This document shows, one piece after another, positions 10,460 to 21,503 of a stretch of 64,000 bases of DNA. The position numbers were made by a program, and so were the translations under genes. A model generated the notes under the pieces. That model did no database searches, was not told the origin of the DNA, and was given only the letters and a program-made list of their open reading frames with translations. The stretch's first letter is position 1, and each line of letters begins with the position of its first letter. Source of the stretch: Vulcanimicrobiota bacterium (GTDB lineage Bacteria; Vulcanimicrobiota; Xenobia; Xenobiales; JADMJV01). The DNA is taken from contig JBFWNU010000001.1 in the NCBI GenBank assembly GCA_050250895.1, positions 648,008-712,007 of the forward strand, written 5' to 3'.

Positions 10460-11439
10460 GTCTGCTGGCCTTGTTGGCCTGCTCGTCCCCACCCCATCCC
10501 ACGCCGTCAGCGGTGGCCACCACGCCCGTCAGGCCCGACCCTACTCCCCAGGCCACCCTGGCCCCGCCCGGCTTGAAGGTCGAGGTTCAGGGACCAGGGC
10601 AGGTCCTGGTCGAGTATTCCGGGGGACGTCTGGTCCGCAGCCTGACGCCGCTCGACTTTCCCAATCCACCCGCCACCGAACTCGAAGGCCCCAGCCCCTA
10701 TCTCGACCGGGAGGTCGCCTCGGGGGTGACCTATCAATATTCGCTCATCGACGGCGACCGGGTGCTCGAGAGTAGTCAGGTCCAGGTCCCGGCCACGTCC
10801 CTTCCGGCCTTGACCCACCCCCGGCTGGTGGTCGACAAAATCCACTACACGCTCTCGGTCTTCGACGGTCCCCAGCGGGTCAAACGCTATCCCTTCGTCA
10901 TGGGCGGAAAACCCCGCCAGCGCAAGCTCTGTCGCGACAATGCCTCCACGCCCGAGGGCATCTACACCATCTACAATCTGCAGCCTCAGGCCACCTTCTA
11001 TCGGGCCTACGACATCGACTATCCCAACCGGATCGACCACTTCCGTTACGGCTTTGCTCGGCGACACCTCGGCCTGGACGACCCCGGCATCGGTGGCGAG
11101 ATCCAGATCCACGGCTGTGGCCTCAACGGCAACTGGACGGCCGGCTGTATGGCCCTGCGCAACGCCGATATGGACGAGTTGTTCGCTCAGCCAGCTCTGG
11201 CCGCCGGCACCAGAGTCTGGATTACAGGCCACGAACTATCGCTGGCCGATCTCGAGGGCCTTTCCCAGGAGCAAAATCCCCAGCTGGTGCGCCAGCTGCA
11301 GAAAAAACTCGGACTCGAGCCCGACGGCCAGATGGGCCGGGCCACCCGCGAGGCCCTGGGACTCTATCAAAAGAAAGAGGGCTGGCCGGTCACGTGTCAG
11401 CTCGACCGCCGCAGCGCCGAGCGCTTGCTCAACCCCTAG
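10435..11439 (+). CDS. L,D-transpeptidase family lipoprotein with C-terminal peptidoglycan-binding domain
   Basis: Lipobox LLAC, TPEGIY, and catalytic IQIHG...WTAGC. C-terminal LQKKLGLEPDGQMGRAT. Confidence 0.85.
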   Translation: MFRYLVQLSLLALLACSSPPHPTPSAVATTPVRPDPTPQATLAPPGLKVEVQGPGQVLVEYSGGRLVRSLTPLDFPNPPATELEGPSPYLDREVASGVTYQYSLIDGDRVLESSQVQVPATSLPALTHPRLVVDKIHYTLSVFDGPQRVKRYPFVMGGKPRQRKLCRDNASTPEGIYTIYNLQPQATFYRAYDIDYPNRIDHFRYGFARRHLGLDDPGIGGEIQIHGCGLNGNWTAGCMALRNADMDELFAQPALAAGTRVWITGHELSLADLEGLSQEQNPQLVRQLQKKLGLEPDGQMGRATREALGLYQKKEGWPVTCQLDRRSAERLLNP

Positions 11440-12686
11440 ACCGTAACGTCCCAGCGCACCAGCTCGTGGTCGCTGCCCCCACCCTCGACCCTGTGCCGTC
11501 CCGAGGCCTGACTGCCGTGGCTGGTGTAAATCCGGTCGATCGAGTTGTCCGCATCGGGGTCGCTCCATCCCAGCGAGTCGGCTGAAGGATAGTGATGAAC
11601 GGGATTGTCCGGCAGCAGACCGCGCCAGCGAAAGTCGAGGTACCTTCCACCCGCCTTCGAATTGAAGTCACCCGCCACGATCGTGTGGTCGCCATAACCT
11701 TCGACGATATCTCCCAGGGTTTGATACTGGGTCACCCGGGCCTGTTGGTCGGCTTCGTCGCCGCCCGAGGTGAAGTGCGTACTGACGAAAGTCGCCTCTT
11801 GCCCACCGGCCTCGAAGCCCACCGCCAGAGCGGTGCGGTTCTCGTTGTCGGGGTCGTTGGCGCCGAGGTCGTGGCGACGCAGGCTGCCGGGCTCGATCTC
11901 GCCCTGGGCGTCGCGGCGCAACTGCGCCTCGGGACCCAGCAGCACGGCGTTGCCATAGGTGCCTGCGCCCGAATGGGCCAGGGACGAGCCAAAGACCACG
12001 GTGTAGTCGGTCTGCGCCCCGTCTTTTTCGATTTCGGCCGAGTAGACGGTGATGGGAGTGTCATTGCTGTCGTCAAAGGCTCGCCGGCCATTCTCGAGAT
12101 AGGGTTGACCGTGCTCGTCGTAACTCTCTTTGCTAACCACCAGGCTGGCACCGTTACTCTCATAGACGACGTGATCCGCGCCCTGGGCGACCCGCTCCAC
12201 CACCTGCTGCTCGCGGTGGTCGCCGAAGTCGGCCTCATACTGGGTGCGGTCATAGCGGACCGGGTCGTAGACGCGGTGGCCCTGCTCATCGACCACGGGT
12301 TGGCCGTGCTCGTCGAGACTGAACTTATCCACCGACTCAGCTTCGCTCCAGTTTGGCCCACTCTCGGCCCGAAAGACGTCCTTGAGGACCTCTTCATTGT
12401 AGTCCTGGCGGCCCGTGCGTTCCGCCCCCACGTCGACCTCTTGAAAAGCCACGACATCGAGACCCCCGCCGGTCACCTGCTCGGACACCTGCCGGGTAGT
12501 CTCGTCAAAGTGTTGGCGAGCCCCGGCGTTGCCGGCGCCCAGGTTGTAGGTGCCCACCTGGAGCCGGGCCGGCGGCGAGACCTCGGCCCGGTCGGCCGCA
12601 ACGGCTGCAGCGGGCCCCGGCGCCGGCTTGGGGTGTTTAGCCAGTCTGGTTTCGGCCCGGACCGGGCCAGCCTCTCGAATCAACAC
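11436..12686 (-). CDS. Endonuclease/exonuclease/phosphatase (EEP) family protein with large insertion
   Basis: Motifs VGTYNL, VAFQEVD, YGNAVL, STHF, IVAGDFN, IDRIY and SDH. Confidence 0.85.
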   Translation of the reverse strand: MLIREAGPVRAETRLAKHPKPAPGPAAAVAADRAEVSPPARLQVGTYNLGAGNAGARQHFDETTRQVSEQVTGGGLDVVAFQEVDVGAERTGRQDYNEEVLKDVFRAESGPNWSEAESVDKFSLDEHGQPVVDEQGHRVYDPVRYDRTQYEADFGDHREQQVVERVAQGADHVVYESNGASLVVSKESYDEHGQPYLENGRRAFDDSNDTPITVYSAEIEKDGAQTDYTVVFGSSLAHSGAGTYGNAVLLGPEAQLRRDAQGEIEPGSLRRHDLGANDPDNENRTALAVGFEAGGQEATFVSTHFTSGGDEADQQARVTQYQTLGDIVEGYGDHTIVAGDFNSKAGGRYLDFRWRGLLPDNPVHHYPSADSLGWSDPDADNSIDRIYTSHGSQASGRHRVEGGGSDHELVRWDVTV

Positions 12687-12857
12687 GCTTGCATTCTAAA
12701 GGCTCTGACCTGCCCAACGGCTGCCCAGATGGTGTCGACGTGAACAGCTCATTGCCGAAGCGTTAACTGGGGCGGGAAGAAGAGTGGGCGAGGGCGAAGG
12801 AATAAGATGTACGACTTGACGACGGGACTAGCCAAGTGATTCACAGGGGAGGTAGTT

Positions 12858-13886
12858 TTGAAGGTCTGCCTGGTTCTCACCCACCAATGCAATCTCGGTT
12901 GTAGCTACTGTTACGCGGGCGAAAAGTTCAAACGCACGATGAGCTACGAGTCGGGCCTCAAGAGTCTCGCTCTGGCTTTCTCGAAGGAAGGGCCTGTCGA
13001 AGTCTCGTTTTTTGGCGGCGAACCGATGATCGCCTTCGCTCAGATGGCCGCCCTCACCCGGGTGGCCCGCCGCTGGGCCGACCGCGCCGGTCGCCAACTG
13101 CGCTTCGCGGTCACCACCAATGCCACGATCCTCAACGAAAAGCACCTCAATTTCTTGCGCGACTACAACTTCTTTGTCGGCATTTCGGTGGACGGCGTCG
13201 AGGAAGAGCATGATCGCCATCGCCCCTTCGTGGGGGGACGAGGCTCCGGCGACCTGGTCTGGCGCAATCTCGAACGGGCCGCCCACTATCTCGACGATTT
13301 TCGGGTCTTGATGGTGGTCCGCCCCGACACCGTGGCCCGCCTGCCCGAAGCCATCGAGCGAATGTACCGCCTGGGCGTCTCGAAGGTTTCGCTCTTGCCC
13401 GAAACCGAAGCCGATTGGAGCGAGTCGCGCCATCTTCTCTCGGACGTCTACCAGCAACTGGCCCGTGTCTGCTACTTCTCGATGATGACCGACGAGCCCA
13501 TGTATATCAGCCCCTTCGCCGAACTGCATCCTCACCTTCGCAGCAACGGCAACGGCGGCGGTCGTGGTGGCTGCAACTTCGGCCGCGACGAGGTGGCCGT
13601 CTCGCCCGCCGGCAACTTCTACCCCTGCGCCCGTCTGGTCGGCCCCGATACTCGCCCCGAGGTGCGCATCGGCAATCTGGAGAACGGCTTTGACCTGGCC
13701 CGCATCGAAGAGCTCAACAGCTGTTCTGAGGCCAGCCTCTCCAAGTGCGGCAGCGGAGGCTGCAAGTGCCTGGCCCTGATGCCGGGCGATGTCGACTATC
13801 AGCTGGTCAACGTCAAGATGTTCACGGACGTCACCGGTGAGGCGTGCCGCGCCGCCGCAGCCTGCCTCGAAGAGGTGGCCGCGTGA
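12858..13886 (+). CDS. Radical SAM/SPASM(-twitch) enzyme, anSME-like; probable peptide/protein maturase
   Basis: CNLGCSYC (CxxxCxxC), FFGGEP, TTNAT and ISVDG. SPASM-type C-x12-G-x4-C (CNFGRDEVAVSPAGNFYPC) followed by further Cys. TTG start after a GGGGAGG RBS. Confidence 0.93.
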   Translation: MKVCLVLTHQCNLGCSYCYAGEKFKRTMSYESGLKSLALAFSKEGPVEVSFFGGEPMIAFAQMAALTRVARRWADRAGRQLRFAVTTNATILNEKHLNFLRDYNFFVGISVDGVEEEHDRHRPFVGGRGSGDLVWRNLERAAHYLDDFRVLMVVRPDTVARLPEAIERMYRLGVSKVSLLPETEADWSESRHLLSDVYQQLARVCYFSMMTDEPMYISPFAELHPHLRSNGNGGGRGGCNFGRDEVAVSPAGNFYPCARLVGPDTRPEVRIGNLENGFDLARIEELNSCSEASLSKCGSGGCKCLALMPGDVDYQLVNVKMFTDVTGEACRAAAACLEEVAA

Positions 13887-14209
13887 GCGAAGACAAAATC
13901 AAAAGGCGCCGCTTCCTGGCTGACGTGCTATTCGCTGGCGGCGGGCTGACCGCGGCTGCTTTCCTGGCCAAGGCCGGCTTTGACCGCGACCAACCCGACC
14001 AACTGCCCGGAGCGGTGGCCGTGCCCAACGACGGCCAAACGCCGACCTGCGAAGAGACCCCGAGCTGTGCGCCCACCCCCGACGATCCCAGCCTGGGCGG
14101 CGAACCGATGCCCCCCGAGCCCCCCATGCCCGGCCAAATGGCCCTGCCCCAGCAACCGCCCGAGGTCATCCCCGATGGTGACGTAGCCGCCCCCAGGGAG
14201 TGCAAATGA
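13883..14209 (+). CDS. Precursor/substrate paralogue P1 (twin-arginine leader + Pro-rich core), 108 aa
   Basis: GTG start overlaps the rSAM TGA (GTGA). Leader MSEDKIKRRRFLADVLFAGGGLTAAAFLAKA. Confidence 0.88.
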   Translation: MSEDKIKRRRFLADVLFAGGGLTAAAFLAKAGFDRDQPDQLPGAVAVPNDGQTPTCEETPSCAPTPDDPSLGGEPMPPEPPMPGQMALPQQPPEVIPDGDVAAPRECK

Positions 14210-14559
14210 GCGACGACAAGATCAAGAGACGCCGATTTCTAGCAGATGTGCTCTTCGCTGGCGGCGGACTGACGGCAGCGGCTTTTCTGGCCAAAGCCGG
14301 CCTGGACCGTCACGAGCCCAACCCCGGCGTAGCCGGCGACATGAAAATGCCCCAACCCGCCAACACTCCGGTGGCCTCGCCCACCTGCGAAGACCCCGAG
14401 ATCGAGGGCGACGTAGCCCTGCCCGAACCCGAGCAGACCCCCTGCGAAAAGCCGCCCCTCACGCCCCAAGACGAGCCCAACGTGGCCGGCGGCATGCGCC
14501 CGCCCCAACCCCCACCCGAGGCACTGCCCGGCCGAGTCGCCGTGCCCCGTGACCAATGA
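14206..14559 (+). CDS. Precursor/substrate paralogue P2, 117 aa
   Basis: ATGA overlap with the P1 stop and an AGGGAG RBS. Leader MSDDKIKRRRFLADVLFAGGGLTAAAFLAKA. Confidence 0.88.
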   Translation: MSDDKIKRRRFLADVLFAGGGLTAAAFLAKAGLDRHEPNPGVAGDMKMPQPANTPVASPTCEDPEIEGDVALPEPEQTPCEKPPLTPQDEPNVAGGMRPPQPPPEALPGRVAVPRDQ

Positions 14560-14891
14560 TGAGCAAAGGCAAGACTCGGCGCCGACGCTTTCTCGCCGAT
14601 CTGCTCTTTGCCGGCGGGACACTCACTGCCGTGGCCTTTCTGGCCAAGGTCGGGGGGACCGTCGACCCACCCACCCCGGCGGGACTGGCCGCAAAGCCCG
14701 CCGCCTCGCCGTCCTTCCAAGAGTGCCCCGAGACTCCAGCCCTGGAGACGCGGGAACCCATCCCGGGCCCCGGAGACCAGGGCACCATCAAAGTTGGCGG
14801 CATGGTCAAGCTGCCGCGCCAAACTGGCAAGGAAGTTCTTCCTGCTAATATCACAAGCAAGCCGGTGACAAGAAGCTATGAGCGAAGATAA
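14556..14891 (+). CDS. Precursor/substrate paralogue P3 (most divergent), 111 aa
   Basis: ATGA overlap with the P2 stop. Leader MMSKGKTRRRRFLADLLFAGGTLTAVAFLAKV. Confidence 0.82.
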   Translation: MMSKGKTRRRRFLADLLFAGGTLTAVAFLAKVGGTVDPPTPAGLAAKPAASPSFQECPETPALETREPIPGPGDQGTIKVGGMVKLPRQTGKEVLPANITSKPVTRSYERR

Positions 14892-15207
14892 GATCAAAAG
14901 GCGCAGATTTCTGGCCGACGTGCTGTTCGCGGGCGGTGGCCTGACGGCCGCAGCCTTTCTGGCCAAAGCCCAGTTCGGCCAACCCGACCCGCCCCTCGTC
15001 AAGCCATCGCCGCGGGAAACCCCCACTTGCGCCCACCCCCCCGAGCCAGACCTCCGGGTCAAAGGCGAGGTGGCGCCACCCCAACCAGCACCGCCAACCC
15101 AGCCCGAGCCGGCTGTGCCCGGCAAAATGAAAGCCCCCAACCCCAGGCCGATCGAGCTTCAGCTCGAGGGCGAGGTAGAGATGCCTGAACCGAGGGAGTG
15201 CAAATGA
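14878..15207 (+). CDS. Precursor/substrate paralogue P4, 109 aa
   Basis: Leader identical in amino acid sequence to P1. Overlaps the end of P3. Confidence 0.88.
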   Translation: MSEDKIKRRRFLADVLFAGGGLTAAAFLAKAQFGQPDPPLVKPSPRETPTCAHPPEPDLRVKGEVAPPQPAPPTQPEPAVPGKMKAPNPRPIELQLEGEVEMPEPRECK

Positions 15208-15527
15208 GCGAAGACAAGATCAAACGCCGCCGATTTCTAGCCGACATCCTGTTCGCCGGTGGAGGCCTGACGGCCGCGGCCTTTCTGGCCAAAGCCCAGT
15301 TCGGCCAAACCTCGCCGACCGACGTGCCTCAAACCTGCGAGACTCCCACCAGCTGCCAATCGCCCGACATCGACGGCAACGCCGTCCCCCCCGTCGAACC
15401 CCACCCCGCCGGCGCCGTCGCGCCCCCTCAGCCCGAAGAGCCCCAACTCGAGGGCAAGGTCGCCCAACCCGTCCAGATCAAAGGCGACGTGGCCGTGCCC
15501 GATGACAGGCTAGAGGGACGACGGTAG
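15204..15527 (+). CDS. Precursor/substrate paralogue P5, 107 aa
   Basis: ATGA overlap with the P4 stop. Leader MSEDKIKRRRFLADILFAGGGLTAAAFLAKA. Confidence 0.88.
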   Translation: MSEDKIKRRRFLADILFAGGGLTAAAFLAKAQFGQTSPTDVPQTCETPTSCQSPDIDGNAVPPVEPHPAGAVAPPQPEEPQLEGKVAQPVQIKGDVAVPDDRLEGRR

Positions 15528-15561
15528 ACGGTAGACGGTAGACGGTAGACGGTAGACGGTA
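15520..15561 (+). repeat. Tandem heptamer repeat (GACGGTA)x6
   Basis: Six perfect copies read directly. The P5 stop codon spans the junction of the first two units. Confidence 0.95.
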
Positions 15562-15693
15562 GAGAGCCGCATCTCGCTGCCGGCTCGCTGCCGGCTCTCT
15601 CCTGTTTCCCTGACGGCGCCCGGGCCCGCCCACTCGAAGCTGGTGAGTTCCCCTCTCGACGGCGAAGCCGCCCAGAATGACGACGCGAAGCGT

Positions 15694-15995
15694 CGAGTAC
15701 CTCAAAACTCGAGGTGAGCCCAGCGAACCTCGCTCCCCTCTCGCTGGCGAGCGCAAGCGAAGCCAGCGCTCCCCTCTCCGGGCGCAGCCCGGCTCCTCTC
15801 TCGCGAGCAAAGCGAGCGCTCCCTTCTCGACGGCGAAGCCGTCGCGAGTACCTCAAAACTCGAGGTGAGCCCAGCGAACCTCGCTCCCTTCTCGCTGGCG
15901 AGCGCAAGCGAAGCCAGCGCTCCCCTCTCCGGGCGCAGCCCGGCTCCTCTCTCGCGAGCAAAGCGAGCGCTCCCTTCTCGACGGCGAAGCCGTCG
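15694..15995. repeat. Tandem direct repeat, 2 x 151 bp, built from small hairpins joined by CTCCYYTCT linkers
   Basis: Units 15694-15844 and 15845-15995 differ at one position. A partial copy lies at about 15650-15670. Confidence 0.92.
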
Positions 15996-15999
15996 CCCG

Positions 16000-16977
16000 C
16001 TAGGCGGTGGCTACGAAGGAGGGAGCGCGGCCGAAGCTCTTGCGATAGCGATCGGCGAACTCATCACGGGTGTAGCTGTGATTCTGGGTGCCGTACTTCT
16101 CCACCACGTAAGCGGCGGCCACGCTGCCCATGCGTCCACATTCGGCCAACTCGCAGCCCGCGACCAGGCCAGCTACGAATCCGCCGCGATAGGCGTCGCC
16201 CGCGCCGGTGGGGTCGACCGCTTTCGAGATCACGCAGGGCGGGACCTCGATGGCCGTCTCGCCTTTGCGCAGAATGCGACTGCCTTTCTCGCCCAGGGTC
16301 ACCACCAGCATGTCCATCTGGTCGAGCAATTGCTCGGTGGTGCGACCGGTCTTCTCTTGGAAGACCGAGAACTCGTAGTCGTTGAGAATCATAGCGTGGG
16401 CGCCCAGAGCGCCTTCGAGCAAGGGTCCGCCCTCCATGGCCGTGACCTGGAAGGAGGGGTCGTAAATCAGCGGGATGCCGGCCTCTTTCGCCTCGCGGCA
16501 GTGACGCAGCATGGCTTCAGGATCGTCAGGGGCGACGATCAGCAGGGCCGGCGAGGGGCCGGCCGAGGCTTTGACACTGATGTTCTTGGAGTGGGGCATG
16601 GCGCCCACATAGAAGCCGGTAATCTGGTTGTTGGCCCGGTCGGTGGTGATGTAGCAGGTGGCCGTGATCTCGTCTTCGACTCGCAGGATGGCCGAGGTGT
16701 CGACCCCGTTCTTCTCGAGGAAGTCGGCGTAGGTGTCGAAATCGTTGCCGGCCGCCGCGATAATGCGGGGGTGGCGACCCAGAAGGGACAGGGTGTAGGC
16801 GATGTTGGCTGCACAGCCGCCCCGCTGCTTGGTGACCTTGTCCACCAGAAAAGAGATGTTGATCATGTGCAGCTTCTCGGGCAGGATGTGCTCCTTGAAG
16901 TAGCCGGGAAAGGACATGATGTTGTCAAAGGCCAGCGAGCCTGCTACCAGGATCTGGCCCTCCATCGTTTTGGCCAC
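16000..16977 (-). CDS. PfkB-family carbohydrate/adenosine kinase
   Basis: Motifs GSLAFD, GGCAANIAY, LNDYE, VTLGEKGS and DPTGAGDAYRGG. GTG start after AAGGAGG. Confidence 0.92.
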   Translation of the reverse strand: MAKTMEGQILVAGSLAFDNIMSFPGYFKEHILPEKLHMINISFLVDKVTKQRGGCAANIAYTLSLLGRHPRIIAAAGNDFDTYADFLEKNGVDTSAILRVEDEITATCYITTDRANNQITGFYVGAMPHSKNISVKASAGPSPALLIVAPDDPEAMLRHCREAKEAGIPLIYDPSFQVTAMEGGPLLEGALGAHAMILNDYEFSVFQEKTGRTTEQLLDQMDMLVVTLGEKGSRILRKGETAIEVPPCVISKAVDPTGAGDAYRGGFVAGLVAGCELAECGRMGSVAAAYVVEKYGTQNHSYTRDEFADRYRKSFGRAPSFVATA

Positions 16978-16990
16978 GGTATTGCCTCCT

Positions 16991-18397
16991 TCAGGGCGTC
17001 GCCGCCGCAGTGGGACTCGCGGCCGGCGTCTCGTTCTTGGAGTAGAGCGGCGCGACGATTCCGCGCCACTCTTCCAGGGGATTGCCCGACGCATTGTAGA
17101 CAGGCTTGGCGCCGTTGTCAACTTGAGTGCTTCCATCCCGGAAAGCTCCCAGGCGAACGTGGCCCAGACTCTTGCCCGACTTGTCGAAAAACTCCAGGTC
17201 GGCGACAGGCTCCTTCAGTTCCGCCGTTTGAGGCAAAGATTCCTCCCAACGAAGGTCCTTGATCTTCCAGAGCAGATCGGTCACTTCGGCGCCGTTATCG
17301 GAGTGGGCCGGCTCGCTGACCTTCCAGCCACCGCTGGTGCGTTTGGCTTCGAGCTTGTAGTCGCCGAGATGCCCGGTGACTTTCTCGACGTTTTCGACCT
17401 CGAAGTCGACCAGGTGGCGCTCTTGGAACTCGTGCACTTCGGGGTGCAGCAATTTGGCCGCTTTGTCACCGAGCTCGACCACCATGGCTTCTTCAGGGTC
17501 GAGTCGGCGGACATAGTACATTCCCGGTTTGACGGCCACCTCCGGACCGATTTCCATCACGAAGGGGCGGGGGTTGTCCTCGAGGGTGGCCTCGACTCGC
17601 AGCCACGGATGGTCCCATTTGACCTTCTCGTCGGGGCCGAGAAAACGTCCACCGGAGAGAGACTTGAGTGCCCAGATGTAATCGTTGACCTGCTGGCGAT
17701 CGGCGGGTGCTTTGATGGGCTCGACCAGCGAGAACTCGACCAGCGGTTCCGGCTCGTCTTCATCCTTCTTCTCGTCTTTGGTTTCGGGCTTTTTGCCGTC
17801 AATCACCAGGGTGTTTGTCGGAGTCACCAGCTTGAGCTTTCTCACCTGGGCCGGAATCACCGGCATCGGACTCTTTTCGCGCAGCGCTTCGATGTCTTGC
17901 TCGAGAGTCTGGCCGAAGGCGCCAGCCACCATATAGATAGGTCCGCTGCCGCCCACCTGAGCATAAAAATTCTGGCCGTCAGGCGTGCGCGAGCCCAGCA
18001 CCAGGTCGTATTCGGCTCCGTCTTCGACATGCAACTTGAGACGATAGCTGGGCTGGTCGAGCCCAAACTCGGCCAAATCCTCGGGCTTGGGGGTCTCGAT
18101 GATCACCTTCTCGTGAGAGAGTTGGCCCAGGTCGTTGGCCAACTGATCCAGCTGGGCTGCGCTGAGCAGCTGCTGACCGAAGAGCCAGCGACCGTCATGA
18201 CGTTCGAAGACCAGCTTCTTGTCGGCTTCTTTAGCTTCGACTTCGAGACGGTCCACCTGGTTCTCTTCGACTTTGGCGAACAGGCGCTTGGCTAGAGCCT
18301 CTTTCTCGGCCTCGTCGGCCTTGTGCTTGGTCGACCAGACATAGAAGCCGGCCAGCCCGATGACCAGCACCAGCATAATCACAGTTGAACGGTTCAT
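16991..18397 (-). CDS. DUF4340 domain protein (Gld-type ABC accessory)
   Basis: N-terminal TM and LAEFGLDQP motif. Last member of the GldA/F/G-like operon. Confidence 0.75.
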   Translation of the reverse strand: MNRSTVIMLVLVIGLAGFYVWSTKHKADEAEKEALAKRLFAKVEENQVDRLEVEAKEADKKLVFERHDGRWLFGQQLLSAAQLDQLANDLGQLSHEKVIIETPKPEDLAEFGLDQPSYRLKLHVEDGAEYDLVLGSRTPDGQNFYAQVGGSGPIYMVAGAFGQTLEQDIEALREKSPMPVIPAQVRKLKLVTPTNTLVIDGKKPETKDEKKDEDEPEPLVEFSLVEPIKAPADRQQVNDYIWALKSLSGGRFLGPDEKVKWDHPWLRVEATLEDNPRPFVMEIGPEVAVKPGMYYVRRLDPEEAMVVELGDKAAKLLHPEVHEFQERHLVDFEVENVEKVTGHLGDYKLEAKRTSGGWKVSEPAHSDNGAEVTDLLWKIKDLRWEESLPQTAELKEPVADLEFFDKSGKSLGHVRLGAFRDGSTQVDNGAKPVYNASGNPLEEWRGIVAPLYSKNETPAASPTAAATP

Positions 18398-18406
18398 GAG
18401 CGGCCC

Positions 18407-19831
18407 CTAGCGAGAATTGTTGCGACCCGAGGCGGTCACGAAGCCGGTCACGGCTACCAGTAAAGGCACCAGGACCATACTCACCAAACGGATCCAGGCC
18501 AGCTGGTTATTCTCGAGCACCAGGGGCTTTGACTTGGACTCGTCATCCCGGATGGTAATCTGGTCGTCGGCCTCGGCCAGCCAGTTGACGGCATTAAGAG
18601 CCAGGTCGCGATTGCCGTTGAGGGCCAGCATATTGTTAGAAAAGCAGTCGATGTCGCCGAAGACCAGCAGCCGCTGCTCTTTAGGCTTGGCCTCGGGCTG
18701 GTCAGGCGCCGGGGTCTCGGTCGGTTTTGGCTGGTCGATCGTTCGGGTCACCGCTACTGCCAGTCCCAGCGAAACCGCCTTCTCGGCATCGGGGGTAAAG
18801 GCGAACTGGGTCTTGCCCACCACCTCGGAGAGGGGCACCGGGTAAGCGCTGGGAGGCGTCTTGATCAGCGGGTCGACGCGGAAGCCTTCCTTCTCGGTCC
18901 CCTTCTCGACGGGGCGGGCCAGGCGGAACAGGGTATTGGTCTTGAAATCGCGGGTGACGGGGCTGTTGGGCGAATAGACGGCGCCCACAGCGAAGACCGG
19001 CTCGGCGTTGACCAGAGCCGAAGCCTCGTCGATGATGACCTCGTCTTTCAGGTCGACTCCGTATTCGGCCACCAGTTCCTGATACTGCTTGGGAGTTTCC
19101 ATCTCGGCCGCCAGCATCAGGTGCCCACCGGCCTCGAGAAAGTCCTTCACCTTCTTGAGTTCGCCTTCGAGCATGGCGCTGGTGGGGCCGGCTAGAATCA
19201 AAGCGGCGGCATCCTTGGGTACTTCCTTTTCAGAGACCAGACTCAACGGCTCGGAAACGAAGCCCTCGGTAGCCAGAGCGGCCTTCCATTCCGAAACCGA
19301 GCCCTGGTCCTTCTGCTCGAGACCACGCTCGCCGTGACCCTGGACAAAATAGACCTTGCGCTCTTTAGAGTGCGAGAGCTTGAGCAAAGCCGAGGTGATG
19401 GCCGCCTCCTCCAAATTGGTGGCGCGCTCGCGCCGCTGGCCCGCTTCTTCGCCTTTGAATTCGAGCACGGCCTGACTATTGGTGCGCACCTCGAGTTCTT
19501 GAGCCAGCGTGGGCCGGCGCTCGACATCGTTAATCTCGTATTCGAACTTCCCGGGGTTGACCTTCTGATAGCGCTCCATCAGCGACTCGACCTCTTTGCG
19601 GCCCCGCCCGTCGGCCTCGAAGACCCAGGCTTTGACGGGCTTGTCCAACCGCCTGAGCAGGTCGAGGCTCTGTTGCGTGAGAGTGTTGCGCTGATTCTTG
19701 GTCAAGTCAAAGGTGTGCTGGTTCTGCTTGGAGATGGCCAGCACCAAAAAGTAGATGGACAAAGCCAGGGCGGCCGAGAAAACGGTAGAGAGAAAAAGCT
19801 TGCTGCGCCGATTCACGATTAGAGCCTCCAC
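18407..19831 (-). CDS. GldG-family ABC auxiliary component
   Basis: Motifs FDLTKNQRNTLT, KVYFVQGHGE, LVFGD and NRDLALNAVNWL, with N- and C-terminal TMs. Confidence 0.85.
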   Translation of the reverse strand: MEALIVNRRSKLFLSTVFSAALALSIYFLVLAISKQNQHTFDLTKNQRNTLTQQSLDLLRRLDKPVKAWVFEADGRGRKEVESLMERYQKVNPGKFEYEINDVERRPTLAQELEVRTNSQAVLEFKGEEAGQRRERATNLEEAAITSALLKLSHSKERKVYFVQGHGERGLEQKDQGSVSEWKAALATEGFVSEPLSLVSEKEVPKDAAALILAGPTSAMLEGELKKVKDFLEAGGHLMLAAEMETPKQYQELVAEYGVDLKDEVIIDEASALVNAEPVFAVGAVYSPNSPVTRDFKTNTLFRLARPVEKGTEKEGFRVDPLIKTPPSAYPVPLSEVVGKTQFAFTPDAEKAVSLGLAVAVTRTIDQPKPTETPAPDQPEAKPKEQRLLVFGDIDCFSNNMLALNGNRDLALNAVNWLAEADDQITIRDDESKSKPLVLENNQLAWIRLVSMVLVPLLVAVTGFVTASGRNNSR

Positions 19832-20577
19832 TTCCGGCTCTCGAGGATGCGCACTGTCAAAAACAGGAATAGCGCTGTCCAGGCCAGGTAGTAGACGATG
19901 TTATGGGTCGAGACATTGCCTCTGGCCATGGCCTCGACGTGCGACATCATCGACAGGTCACCGAAGGTCTCTTTGACGGCCGTGATCTGGTCGTCGAGAA
20001 TCATGATCAACCAGCTGGCCATCAGCCCGCCATAGCTCACCACGGCCGCGATCATCTGACTCGACGTGGTGCTCGAGGCCCACAGGCCAAAGGCCGTGAA
20101 GGCGGCTCCCAGCAGCAGCAGGCCGAGATAGCCCGACCCGATGAGCTTCCACTCGATGTCGGTGAGGCGACTGAGCATCACCACCGACACCGAACTGAAA
20201 GCCAACATGGTGGCCACCACCGTCTGCGCGGCAAAAAACTTGCCGCCCACGATCTGCCACTCGGTCAGAGGATAGGTGAACAGCATCTCGAGGGTGCCCG
20301 AGCGACTCTCTTCGGCGATGAGGCGCATCGTCAAGAGCGGCAGGATGAACAACATGAGAAAGCCCATCCACCATTGCACCGGCACCACCAGATCGTCCAT
20401 GACGTTGACGCTGCGCGCCATGAACGGATTCATACCGGCGCTCATGGAGTACTGCGAATAGCTGTTGACCATGCCGGTGAAGATCAGGCCCAGCACGAAC
20501 AGGTAGATGGCCATCAGCACCCAGGCCAGGCTCGAGTTGAAATAGGCGGCCAGTTCGCGCCGATAGATTGCCAGCAT
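19819..20577 (-). CDS. GldF-like ABC-2 permease
   Basis: Motifs RRELAAYFNS and PLLTMRLIAEESRSGTLEMLFTYP. Confidence 0.9.
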   Translation of the reverse strand: MLAIYRRELAAYFNSSLAWVLMAIYLFVLGLIFTGMVNSYSQYSMSAGMNPFMARSVNVMDDLVVPVQWWMGFLMLFILPLLTMRLIAEESRSGTLEMLFTYPLTEWQIVGGKFFAAQTVVATMLAFSSVSVVMLSRLTDIEWKLIGSGYLGLLLLGAAFTAFGLWASSTTSSQMIAAVVSYGGLMASWLIMILDDQITAVKETFGDLSMMSHVEAMARGNVSTHNIVYYLAWTALFLFLTVRILESRKWRL

Positions 20578-21503
20578 CAGTTGGCCTCCTTGCGCACGAT
20601 TTTGAGAAAGATGTCTTCGAGGCTCAAACTCTGGGGAGTCAGCTCGAGCAGGTCCCACTCTTGAGCGATCACGGTGCGAGCCAATTCGGCCCGCACATCC
20701 ACCCCGGTGTCGGATTCGACCTCGTAGAGGTTGCCCTCGACCTTGCGCACCTCATTAATGCCTTCCACGGTCCCTAGCACACTGGAAACCTTGTCGCTGT
20801 CGGTCCCCACCCGCACCAGGATGCGGGCCATGCCCTGCAGACTCGAGGTCAGGTTGCGAGGAGTGTCGATGGCCTTGATCTTGCCTTCGGCGATGATGAT
20901 GACCCGGCTACACGTGGCCGAGACCTCGGGCAGAATGTGAGTCGAGAGGATGACCGTGGACGATTCGGCCAGTTCCCGAATCAATTCGCGGATATCGCGG
21001 ATCTGGGCCGGGTCGAGCCCCACGGTGGGCTCGTCGAGGATCAAGACCTTGGGATTGTTGACGATGGCCTGAGCCAATCCCACCCGCTGCTTGTAGCCTC
21101 GGGAGATGGTGCCGATCAACTGGTTCTCGACCGAGCCCAGGTTGCAGCGGCCCATGGCCAGCTTGACGGCCTTCTCCCGCTCGCTGCCGGGAATGCCCTT
21201 GGCGGCGGCGGCAAAGGTCAAGAATTCTCGAGTGGTCATCTCGTGATAGAGCGGCACATGTTCGGGCAGGTATCCAACGCTGCGGCGCACCTCGATGGAC
21301 TCATCCGAGACGTCATGACCGGCGATGCTGGCTGTTCCCGAAGTCGGCGGGAAATAACCCGTCAGCATACGCATTGTAGTGGTCTTGCCGGCGGCGTTGG
21401 GGCCGAGGAAACCGAGGATCTCCCCCTTGTGGACCTCGAAAGTCAACCCGTCGACAGCCACTTTATCTCCGAAAACCTTCGTGAGCTTGTTAGCGGCAAT
21501 CAC
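20577..21503 (-). CDS. GldA-like ABC transporter ATP-binding protein
   Basis: Walker A GPNAAGKTT, signature ISRGYKQR, Walker B LILDEPT. Confidence 0.95.
   Translation of the reverse strand: MIAANKLTKVFGDKVAVDGLTFEVHKGEILGFLGPNAAGKTTTMRMLTGYFPPTSGTASIAGHDVSDESIEVRRSVGYLPEHVPLYHEMTTREFLTFAAAAKGIPGSEREKAVKLAMGRCNLGSVENQLIGTISRGYKQRVGLAQAIVNNPKVLILDEPTVGLDPAQIRDIRELIRELAESSTVILSTHILPEVSATCSRVIIIAEGKIKAIDTPRNLTSSLQGMARILVRVGTDSDKVSSVLGTVEGINEVRKVEGNLYEVESDTGVDVRAELARTVIAQEWDLLELTPQSLSLEDIFLKIVRKEAN

Follow-up and report, generated by a model that had tools for sequence, protein, structure and literature searches.

Modified peptides normally rely on an exporter of their own, a protease of their own and an RRE through which the leader is read. 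One RRE-less radical SAM protein is the anaerobic sulfatase-maturating enzyme, which modifies a cytoplasmic sulfatase before Sec or Tat export and recognises the sulfatase motif directly. On the export side, Tat proofreading chaperones of the TorD, DmsD and NapD class are dedicated proteins that serve cofactor enzymes and bind the substrate's twin-arginine signal until maturation is done. A full-text literature search found no natural Tat-signal RiPP, and the only related work it returned is reportedly the engineered Tat export of lanthipeptides (PMC5686179).

Signal-bearing RiPP precursors have been described in another setting. In bufferins, oxazolins and chryseobasin-type lipoprotein RiPPs, a general-secretion signal replaces the classical leader, and such MNIO-modified precursors are modified in the cytoplasm and then exported and processed by housekeeping machinery, according to the available parts of two papers, which call a secretion signal on the precursor highly unusual for bacterial RiPPs (PMC12452194, PMC13056109). 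Neither "Tat" nor "twin-arginine" occurs in the accessible text of these two papers. For the radical SAM enzyme PapB, the available part of its description reports that Cys-to-Asp spacings of 0-6 are tolerated and that leader binding is expected at the RRE domain (PMC9413430).

A radical SAM enzyme followed by five precursor genes

In the window, the 64,000-nucleotide stretch of a Vulcanimicrobiota bacterium genome that was analysed, a radical SAM gene on the plus strand (12858..13886, 342 aa) is followed on the same strand by five translationally coupled tandem genes of about 110 aa each. The first precursor, P1 (13883..14209, 108 aa), begins with a GTG codon that overlaps the radical SAM stop and consists of a leader (13883-13975) and a Pro-rich core. 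P2 (14206..14559, 117 aa; leader 14206-14298) is joined to P1 by an ATGA start/stop overlap, and P3 (14559..14891, 110 aa; leader 14559-14651) has an alternative ATG one codon upstream, at 14556. P4 (14878..15207, 109 aa; leader 14878-14970) carries a leader identical in protein sequence to that of P1, and P5 (15204..15527, 107 aa; leader 15204-15296) closes the array. The range 13883-15296 opens with the first codon of P1 and closes with the last one of the P5 leader.

The enzyme carries a CX3CX2C cluster motif at residues 11-18 and matches Pfam Radical_SAM with 68.5 bits. Its best NCBIfam match is PapB, NF047865, at 186.6 bits, which lies under the cut-off of 340; TIGR03942 scores 84.7 against a cut-off of 349, and Pfam SPASM 15.2 bits against 21.5. 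A SPASM domain with its two auxiliary clusters has at least seven conserved cysteines after the radical SAM core, including CX2CX5CX3C. The C-terminal part of this enzyme is SPASM-like with five conserved cysteines after the core (C239, C257, C297, C302 and C304 in 19 sequences): among the 19 homologues, cysteines 11, 15, 18, 239, 257, 302 and 304 are conserved and 297 is nearly invariant. An N-terminal RRE is absent from the enzyme, and all 19 homologues begin at the cluster motif. The nearest solved structure, CteB (5wgg, E 1.7e-38), aligns with the enzyme only from chain residue 99, and the lack of any counterpart to CteB residues 1-98 supports the absence of an RRE. Five loci with 51 neighbouring ORFs between them yielded no peptidase, no ABC exporter and no PqqD protein. 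The genes would thus make up a minimal peptide-modification module of two components, a single RRE-less radical SAM enzyme and five coupled precursors.

The five precursors gave no meaningful family match in Pfam or NCBIfam, and Rfam gave none over 12400-16100. A scan for promoters and terminators returned one weak promoter-like site within the array and no plus-strand terminator. In sequencing runs, only 5-9% of the sampled words were present, uncovered stretches being uninformative. An RNA-library contig from a relative of about 94% identity covers 13518-13966, which is no proof of transcription since DNA can occur in RNA libraries. Two further features were considered as parts of the system and rejected, as neither is conserved with it: the repeats that follow P5 and a set of ABC-2/DUF4340 genes (16994-21503).

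Conservation of leaders and divergence of cores

Each precursor opens with a 31-residue leader that contains KRRRFL in P1, P2, P4 and P5 and RRRRFL in P3, followed by a Gly/Ala-rich hydrophobic stretch and then A-K-A in four of the five copies (A-K-V in P3). Leader identity among the copies ranges from 23 to 31 of 31 residues: P1 and P4 agree at 31/31, P2 and P5 each match P1 at 30/31 and one another at 29/31, and P3 is the most divergent copy, at 23/31. A sequence-only reading of this DNA had described the match to the Tat consensus RRxFL, the composition of the following region with its one exception, the identity of the P1 and P4 leaders, the one-residue differences of P2 and P5, and the many synonymous codon differences between copies. 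These observations stand: RR-R-F-L is present in all five copies, and the P1 and P2 codon strings that it quoted are exact.

The same reading proposed strong purifying selection on the leader and called for a comparison of leader and core, which bears the proposal out. Counted pairwise by the Nei-Gojobori method over codons 2-31, the leaders differ by 8.5-20.5 synonymous against 1.0-11.7 non-synonymous changes per pair. Among P1, P2, P4 and P5, pS is 0.35-0.72, pN 0.015-0.053 and dN/dS 0.011-0.081; with P3 included, the ranges over all pairs are 0.35-0.82, 0.015-0.18 and 0.011-0.18, with synonymous sites close to saturation. In the cores of the same pairs pS is similar and pN reaches 0.35-0.55; the cores are 25-50% identical where they could be aligned (61-73 positions), although the alignment between precursors is uncertain. 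The low pN at high pS in the leaders places the conservation at the level of the protein and not of the DNA, and it is far above chance. In contigs from a relative, all five listed differences within the P1 leader are synonymous, as read from codon positions.

The accompanying premise that generic Tat signals drift freely outside the RR motif was overstated. Two ordinary Tat substrates compared across the same genomes have signals that are 42-88% identical, about as well kept as their mature parts at 40-76%. By hand count, the leader matches at 28/31 and 26/31 residues in two of these genomes. By this sequence comparison, the leader appears only moderately more conserved than the better-kept of the two ordinary Tat signals.

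The precursors belong to a family that bears no existing name. A profile search over 1.84 billion representatives returned 218 matches at E<=0.001, which are clusters at 50% identity, and a loose leader motif is found in 149 of the best 150 of these 218. The arginine pair is present in 149/149 motif-bearing representatives, although the motif test admitted RK, KR and KK; the residue that follows it varies (R 117, Q 15, K 13 and E 4 of 149), and the residue that precedes it is S or T in 76/149. Positions +3 to +12 are nearly all invariant (F+3 149/149, L+4 138/149, F+9 149/149, GG 144-145/149), an apparent invariance that is inflated, since the leader is itself what the profile and pattern searches look for.

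Starting from the enzyme instead, motif-bearing precursors lie downstream of the radical SAM gene in 18 of 21 loci with downstream DNA, amounting to 38 precursors with RR in 38/38; none was detected downstream of the enzyme at the remaining three (L036, L043, L044). A further three loci (L037, L047, L049) end at contig edges and cannot show a precursor. The order of enzyme then precursor, with start/stop overlap, recurs down to 41-46% enzyme identity, and the number of tandem precursors per locus ranges from one to six. A leader pattern scan of genome contigs yielded 17 loci, of which five (L017-L021) were dropped for lacking the family motif; at L008 and L009, precursors occur with no adjoining radical SAM gene. 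Enzyme matches at 26-33% identity (L040-L042, L048) were set aside as parts of other systems, and a long open frame preceding the L016/G054 enzyme was taken as spurious since two congeneric genomes do not preserve it.

The cores carry two recurrent features. An octamer of the form hydrophobic-x-G-x-hydrophobic-x-x-P occurs 160 times against 28.9 +/- 4.6 in 500 shuffles (maximum 45). Cysteine is present in 46 of 56 family cores, and in 47 of 62 cases it is followed by Asp or Glu within seven residues, against 37.1 +/- 3.7 after shuffling, a value of 47 being reached by 2 of 1000 shuffles. The most likely chemistry in most members would be a PapB-like thioether between Cys and Asp/Glu, with the repeated octamer as a second, possible target of modification. 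Cysteine is missing from 10/56 members and 28/149 representatives, which makes the chemistry less certain.

Candidate functions of the leader: export and enzyme docking

The proposal that the leader resembles a Tat signal is sustained by features that can be read by hand and by the genes of the host, and finds no backing from the family profiles. Beyond the twin-arginine motif itself, the leader has a 15-residue uncharged stretch with a mean Kyte-Doolittle value of 1.89-2.0, the lower figure lying at the top end of the range for those Tat signals in this genome that the profiles do recognise, and the c-region position is basic (K or R) in 107/149 representatives. The lysine that follows F-L in the Tat consensus is replaced here by A-D, and an invariant Asp lies within the hydrophobic region. 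PF10518 gives 7.3 bits against a cut-off of 22.7, aligning to the hydrophobic part rather than to RR, and TIGR01409 gives no match at E<=10; searched against the whole genome, the two profiles have 34 and 25 matches, none of them to any of the five leaders. At the putative cleavage site, 116/149 representatives have A at -3, and 88/149 have one of A, S and T at -1 (28, 37 and 23, respectively), with V, W or L in others. With the signal-peptidase site only partly conserved, an uncleaved signal anchor is possible. The host genome (G000) encodes TatC (213.9 bits) and three TatA/B proteins, and within the order 38 of 40 genomes have TatC, among them every one that bears the family; presence of the translocase is necessary for a Tat reading and does not discriminate.

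Structural modelling points to a second role. A complex model of the radical SAM enzyme with leader residues 1-36 scores 0.68 (runs 0.68, 0.68 and 0.70), against 0.02 for the best of three controls. Of 157 solved complexes, 116 came up to that mark, as did 2 of 215 mismatched pairs; with own alignments in use here, these counts apply only roughly. The runs agree in at least 97% of contacts, with a partner pLDDT of at least 70. In the model, the leader helix contacts enzyme residues ~163-173, 200-215 and the C-terminal tail, R8-R10 are set against E213, D212 and R171/Y170, and the conserved n-region preceding RR is also in predicted contact. Residues E167, Y170, R171, G173, S208 and T211 of this predicted interface are invariant in 12 clade-1 enzymes. 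Seven clade-2 paralogues are 0.14 identical to the window enzyme at the predicted interface and 0.41 overall, and they have a four-residue deletion there; their leaders differ too, reading F-[IL]-T-D or F-V-G-G. As modelled, the docking surface is clade-specific and changes together with the leader between the two enzyme clades. Within clade 1, identity at the predicted interface is 0.58, no higher than the 0.60 of the whole protein, and in silico docking of a hydrophobic helix can be meaningless; both count against a reading of the model as binding.

Taken together, it is plausible that the 31-residue leader serves both for docking on the radical SAM enzyme and for Tat export, with a probability that we put at roughly one half, or slightly below. 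The leader helix would dock on the surface formed by residues ~163-173, 200-215 and the C-terminal tail, and the Pro-rich core would thereby be held at the active site while still inside the cytoplasm. The same segment, with RR-x-F-L, an uncharged stretch of 15 residues and, at the end of a basic c-region, A-K-A, would act as a twin-arginine type signal, so that the modified peptide, once released from the enzyme, might pass through the housekeeping Tat translocase and then perhaps lose its leader to the general signal peptidase. Use of Tat and of a general signal peptidase would, on this proposal, leave a cluster-specific exporter or protease unneeded. Against it, the same contrast between leader and core would arise with no enzyme binding at all if a conserved anchor were followed by a disordered Pro-rich tail that evolves fast.

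A more specific form of this proposal, which we hold to be on the doubtful side, is that the radical SAM enzyme acts as its own Tat proofreading chaperone. It would clamp the twin-arginine helix of the precursor, with RR against the acidic patch at 212/213 and the hydrophobic face in a groove formed by residues 163-215, and mask the signal until the core is modified and the peptide can go to Tat. If so, the system would represent a natural Tat-routed family of modified peptides with RRE-free leader binding, built from only two gene types.

A somewhat unlikely alternative to dual function is that the leader is an export signal or membrane anchor only, and that the enzyme reads the repeated core motifs directly. 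The signal would either be cleaved or stay in place as an anchor of the Rieske kind, inserted by Tat or Sec. Conservation of the leader would then have causes in the membrane, for instance the packing of helices, an interaction partner or an intramembrane protease. The enzyme lacks an RRE and is about the size of the anaerobic sulfatase-maturating enzyme, and the over-represented octamer could be what it recognises. Not all members have the A-x-A site, and ordinary Tat signals in these genomes are fairly conserved too. P3 weakly resembles QcrA_N (E 0.15-0.16), and the nearest ESM Atlas clusters include the Rieske Tat signal-anchor family, at scores of 0.83-0.85 that have the standing of a lead. 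Dual function is favoured over a plain anchor by a complex model that passes with clean controls and by the concerted change of docking surface and leader between enzyme clades. A plain anchor would also have no need of the conserved n-region before RR that is predicted to be in contact, and the near invariance of +3 to +12 extends beyond one helix face.

The converse, that the leader is solely a maturase-recognition element, is improbable. In such a scheme, RR would bind through acidic residues 212/213, in line with the modelled position of R8-R10, and the peptide would be no Tat substrate, as the failure of the Tat profiles might suggest; it would remain in the cell or membrane, or exit by an unlinked route. 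Against this, a hydrophobic stretch of 15-19 residues behind a basic n-region would be membrane-targeting anyway. RR is retained in all motif-bearing representatives although the neighbouring basic position accepts K, which fits a Tat signal better than a contact by charge alone, and the frequent S or T ahead of RR and the basic c-region residue likewise speak against recognition only. Very improbable is the view that these are merely membrane-tethered Pro-rich spacer proteins beside a radical SAM gene that has no enzyme-substrate meaning: precursors away from any such gene, three enzyme loci with none detected and the lack of a matching family model are compatible with it, but it is at odds with the coupled gene order of 18/21 loci even at 41-46% enzyme identity, with tandem copies and hypervariable cores typical of precursor arrays, and with the excess of Cys followed by Asp/Glu.

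Relation to described systems

One conserved 31-residue segment may stand in for an exporter, a protease and an RRE. If true, this would explain how a cytoplasmic, oxygen-sensitive enzyme completes its work before export, and engineers would gain a portable tag by which a peptide is first modified and then exported.

Among radical SAM systems, the closest likeness is to PapB and its precursor PapA (freyrasin), in best family match and in the Cys followed shortly downstream by Asp/Glu in most cores, and to CteB/CteA, through the nearest solved structure. The enzyme described here differs from PapB and CteB in scoring below the PapB cut-off, in lacking an RRE and in having five conserved cysteines after the radical SAM motif, and its precursors differ in being Cys-free in some members and in their hydrophobic, signal-like leaders. 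With the anaerobic sulfatase-maturating enzyme, as that enzyme is generally described, it shares a comparable size and the lack of an RRE, whereas it falls under the TIGR03942 cut-off and acts on short Pro-rich peptides encoded in tandem instead of on enzymes, if the precursors are its substrates; these peptides are devoid of the sulfatase C/S-x-P-x-R motif. The likeness to Tat proofreading chaperones, a part that the complex model suggests the radical SAM enzyme may play, is one of role; here, the modifying enzyme itself would bind the signal.

Bufferins, oxazolins and chryseobasin-type peptides use an MNIO enzyme with a DUF2063-type partner and Sec or SPII signals, whereas here a lone radical SAM protein is paired with a twin-arginine type signal, and the signal itself is the predicted docking element. 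The system is plausibly a variant of the signal-peptide RiPPs, with a Tat-type signal and a radical SAM enzyme, and would, if the dual function holds, be the Tat counterpart to the recently recognised Sec-signal RiPPs.

Leader conservation in the precursor array

The radical SAM enzyme (342 aa; 12858-13886, +) is followed by five small precursor genes, P1 (13883-14209, +), P2 (14206-14559, +), P3 (14559-14891, +), P4 (14878-15207, +) and P5 (15204-15527, +). Because start and stop codons overlap, or the genes overlap slightly, at every junction, the six genes are probably one translational unit. Each precursor opens with a 31-residue leader, in which a basic n-region containing K-R-R-R-F-L leads into a hydrophobic stretch rich in Gly and Ala and then A-K-A (P3 has A-K-V), and continues into a Pro-rich tail of ~77 residues, the core; Pro content across the precursor family is 25%. 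The leader motif was found only at P1-P5 in the 9.5-Mb genome. The best single explanation of this leader is a dual function as Tat-type export signal and enzyme docking element, to which we give slightly less than even odds (about 0.48). The main rival, which we regard as rather unlikely, holds that the leader is purely a signal or anchor and that enzyme recognition is directed at the core.

The sequence-only reading had proposed this double role from the Tat-like motif and from leader identity at the protein level, and its observation is confirmed. The P1 and P4 leaders are identical (31/31), those of P2 and P5 are one residue off P1 and two residues apart from each other, and the codons it quoted for P1 and P2 are exact. 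Across leader codons 2-31, synonymous differences number 8.5-20.5 per pair and non-synonymous ones no more than 1.0-11.7. Among P1, P2, P4 and P5, leader pS is 0.35-0.72, pN 0.015-0.053 and dN/dS 0.011-0.081 (up to 0.18 in pairs with P3), whereas the cores of the same pairs, whose alignment is uncertain, have a pN of 0.35-0.55, a similar pS and 25-50% identity. The strong purifying selection claimed for the leader is thus upheld by the dN/dS comparison. In public-run contigs of a ~92-94% identical relative, the P1 leader differs at 13888, 13903, 13915, 13916 and 13930 among the differences listed, all five synonymous by codon position; 152 further differences lie on the stretch besides those listed. 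The precursor copies are old, and the leader is kept at the protein level. Neither gene conversion nor DNA-level constraint accounts for this conservation.

The accompanying premise that generic Tat signals drift freely was too strong, as two ordinary Tat signals of the same genome, compared across five relatives, are about as conserved as their own mature parts. In a 705-aa lipoprotein-type oxidoreductase the signal is 42-73% and the mature part 40-64% identical; in a 418-aa DUF1501-like protein the values are 58-88% and 59-76%. By hand count, the leader retains 28/31 residues in a same-genus genome (enzyme 77%) and 26/31 in a same-family genome (enzyme 72%), so that it is better conserved than the control signals and its own enzyme, though it exceeds the better control only modestly. 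The unusual features are the reversal, with the leader far above the core, the conserved n-region and the near-invariance of almost all positions from +3 to +12.

Spread and surroundings of the family

Word-based and pattern searches turned up relatives in metagenome bins; the bins carry the labels Eremiobacterota, Vulcanimicrobiota or Xenobia. An enzyme-only search of 401 genomes of the phylum, which avoids picking loci by their leader, gave a match at E<=1e-30 in 21, the window's own included. Among 21 loci with downstream DNA (L037, L047 and L049 stop at contig edges and fall outside this count), in 18 the enzyme is immediately followed by one to six precursors in tandem, altogether 38, and RR is present in all 38; no precursor was found behind the enzyme in L036, L043 and L044. 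A second enzyme clade, 41-46% identical and often sharing a genome with the first, has related but distinct leaders (F-[IL]-T-D and F-V-G-G versus F-L-A-D and F-A-G-G).

Searching 1.84 billion representatives with a profile returned 218 matches at E<=0.001 (103 at <=1e-10), mostly of 70-150 aa. Of the best 150, 15 were already known from an earlier search, and most of those were query rows. The loose motif [RK][RK]-x-hydrophobic-hydrophobic occurs in 149 of these best 150, the sole exception being P0161 with R-N-R. Although the motif test admitted K, RR is present in 149/149, as are F+3 and F+9, with D+6 in 140 and GG in 144-145; the position after RR is variable, with R in 117, Q in 15, K in 13 and E in 4. 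The profile favours leader-bearing sequences, and part of this invariance therefore comes from the selection of hits. An invariant RR beside a freely varying neighbour goes beyond what hit selection accounts for.

No peptidase or exporter conserved with the system was found in the five loci examined. In the window (11436-12686, -) and in L005 (4254-4925, -), a gene of the endonuclease/exonuclease/phosphatase family sits just upstream of the enzyme gene; in L016 (49-1239, +) it sits 3 kb upstream. Beyond this gene, the window has a YkuD/PG_binding_1 gene and L005 a PG_binding_1 gene. These upstream genes may be mere shared synteny of related genomes. The window's downstream ABC-2 system, of gliding type, is not kept in other loci. 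In L030, L032, L038 and L039, loci of one genus, the precursor array is followed by a conserved protein of ~190-230 aa, which is assigned to no family and is absent from the window. In L024, L025 and L027 (the same as L015, L005 and L006; one genus), the stop of the single precursor is overlapped by the start of a Pyr_redox_2 gene, type-2 NADH dehydrogenase-like. Directly at the P5 stop, the heptamer GACGGTA forms a perfect array of 6.3 copies (15520-15563), followed by two copies of a 151-bp unit at 99% identity (15694-15996); the very high summed contig depth of the heptamer region in metagenome runs marks it as a widespread repeat.

Proposed export signal and docking element

Several features favour a Tat signal. 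RR-x-F-L is present and its RR is invariant, the residue preceding RR is S or T in 76/149, the c-region contains K or R in 107/149, and an uncharged stretch of 15 residues has a mean hydropathy of 1.89, at the upper edge of the genome's profile-positive Tat signals. The genome encodes TatC and three TatA/B proteins; TatC is present in 38/40 genomes of the order, among them all that bear the family, and is necessary rather than discriminating. Three Tat-signal families are among the nearest language-model clusters (0.83-0.85, a lead only). Against it, A-D stands where K usually follows F-L, PF10518 scores 7.3 bits on the leader, below its cut-off of 22.7, TIGR01409 gives no match at E<=10, and the leaders are missing from the genome-wide match lists of both profiles. 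A-x-A is present in 4/5 window copies; family-wide, 116/149 have A at -3 and only 88/149 carry A, S or T at -1. In some members the segment may be a Rieske-type signal anchor that stays uncleaved.

Elsewhere in the genome, many of the best Tat-profile matches are paralogous ~250-aa proteins, even though their motif is not N-terminal (contig positions such as C2:781632-781709, C1:1925376-1925462, C3:616601-616690, and C2:174128 and C2:176469, loci L064 and L065). Their N-terminal part is PqqD-like (TIGR04353, 20.6 bits, under the cut-off of 35); internally they have R-R-x-F-L-K with a hydrophobic segment, which TIGR01409 scores as a Tat signal (20.5 bits), and their tail is very rich in Cys.

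The enzyme is without an RRE: 19/19 aligned homologues begin at the CX3CX2C motif, and the match to the closest solved structure, CteB (5wgg), starts at chain residue 99. No PqqD-like protein was found among 51 neighbouring ORFs of five loci. When the enzyme was modelled in complex with leader residues 1-36, the score was 0.68 (runs 0.68, 0.68 and 0.70), whereas the best-scoring of three controls gave 0.02; contact agreement between runs is at least 97% and partner pLDDT at least 70. The mark was reached by 116/157 solved complexes and 2/215 mismatched pairs, counts that hold only roughly as our own alignments were used. This pass supports leader-enzyme binding as a prediction, without proving it. 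The modelled leader contacts fall at helical spacing (8-10, 12-13, 16-17, 19, 21-25 and 27-28) and meet enzyme residues 163-173, 200-215 and 336-340, with the leader arginines near D212/E213. Within the predicted interface E167, Y170, R171, G173, S208 and T211 are invariant in 12/12 enzymes of the first clade, yet the complete interface is not more conserved there than the rest of the enzyme (0.58 vs 0.60). In the second clade (n=7) it is only 0.14 identical to the window enzyme, versus 0.41 overall, and carries a 4-residue deletion, which fits that clade's different leaders.

Candidate chemistry and relation to known systems

Among families, the enzyme matches PapB best (186.6 bits, under the cut-off of 340), and just five Cys beyond the radical SAM motif are conserved. 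Cys is found in the core of 46/56 collected members, usually as T/S-P-x-C in the first third, and is lacking in 10/56. Asp or Glu follows within 7 residues in 47/62 cases versus 37.1 +/- 3.7 after shuffling, a value reached by 2/1000 shuffles. With PapB described as accepting spacings of 0-6 (PMC9413430), this excess makes a thioether ring, by analogy, the leading guess for the core modification. All cores also carry a repeated octamer, hydrophobic-x-G-x-hydrophobic-x-x-P (160 observed vs 28.9 +/- 4.6 shuffled), at 1-7 copies per core in the window (13976-15524) and all family members, with subtypes resembling L-D-G-D-V-A-x-P, L-G-G-K-P-M-x-P and x-P-G-x-M-x-x-P. Candidate roles are a second target, a functional motif or a recognition unit, the last being a place where recognition directed at the core could occur.

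A full-text literature search found no natural Tat-signal RiPP, and one engineered Tat case has reportedly been made (PMC5686179). Among the nearest known systems are the MNIO-modified bufferins, oxazolins and chryseobasin-like peptides, in which Sec or lipoprotein signals replace the classical leader, an arrangement termed highly unusual (PMC12452194, PMC13056109). Tat is mentioned in neither report, whereas the leader here is of the twin-arginine type. The present system would extend signal-peptide RiPPs to an RRE-less radical SAM enzyme with a twin-arginine type leader, which may itself be the docking helix.
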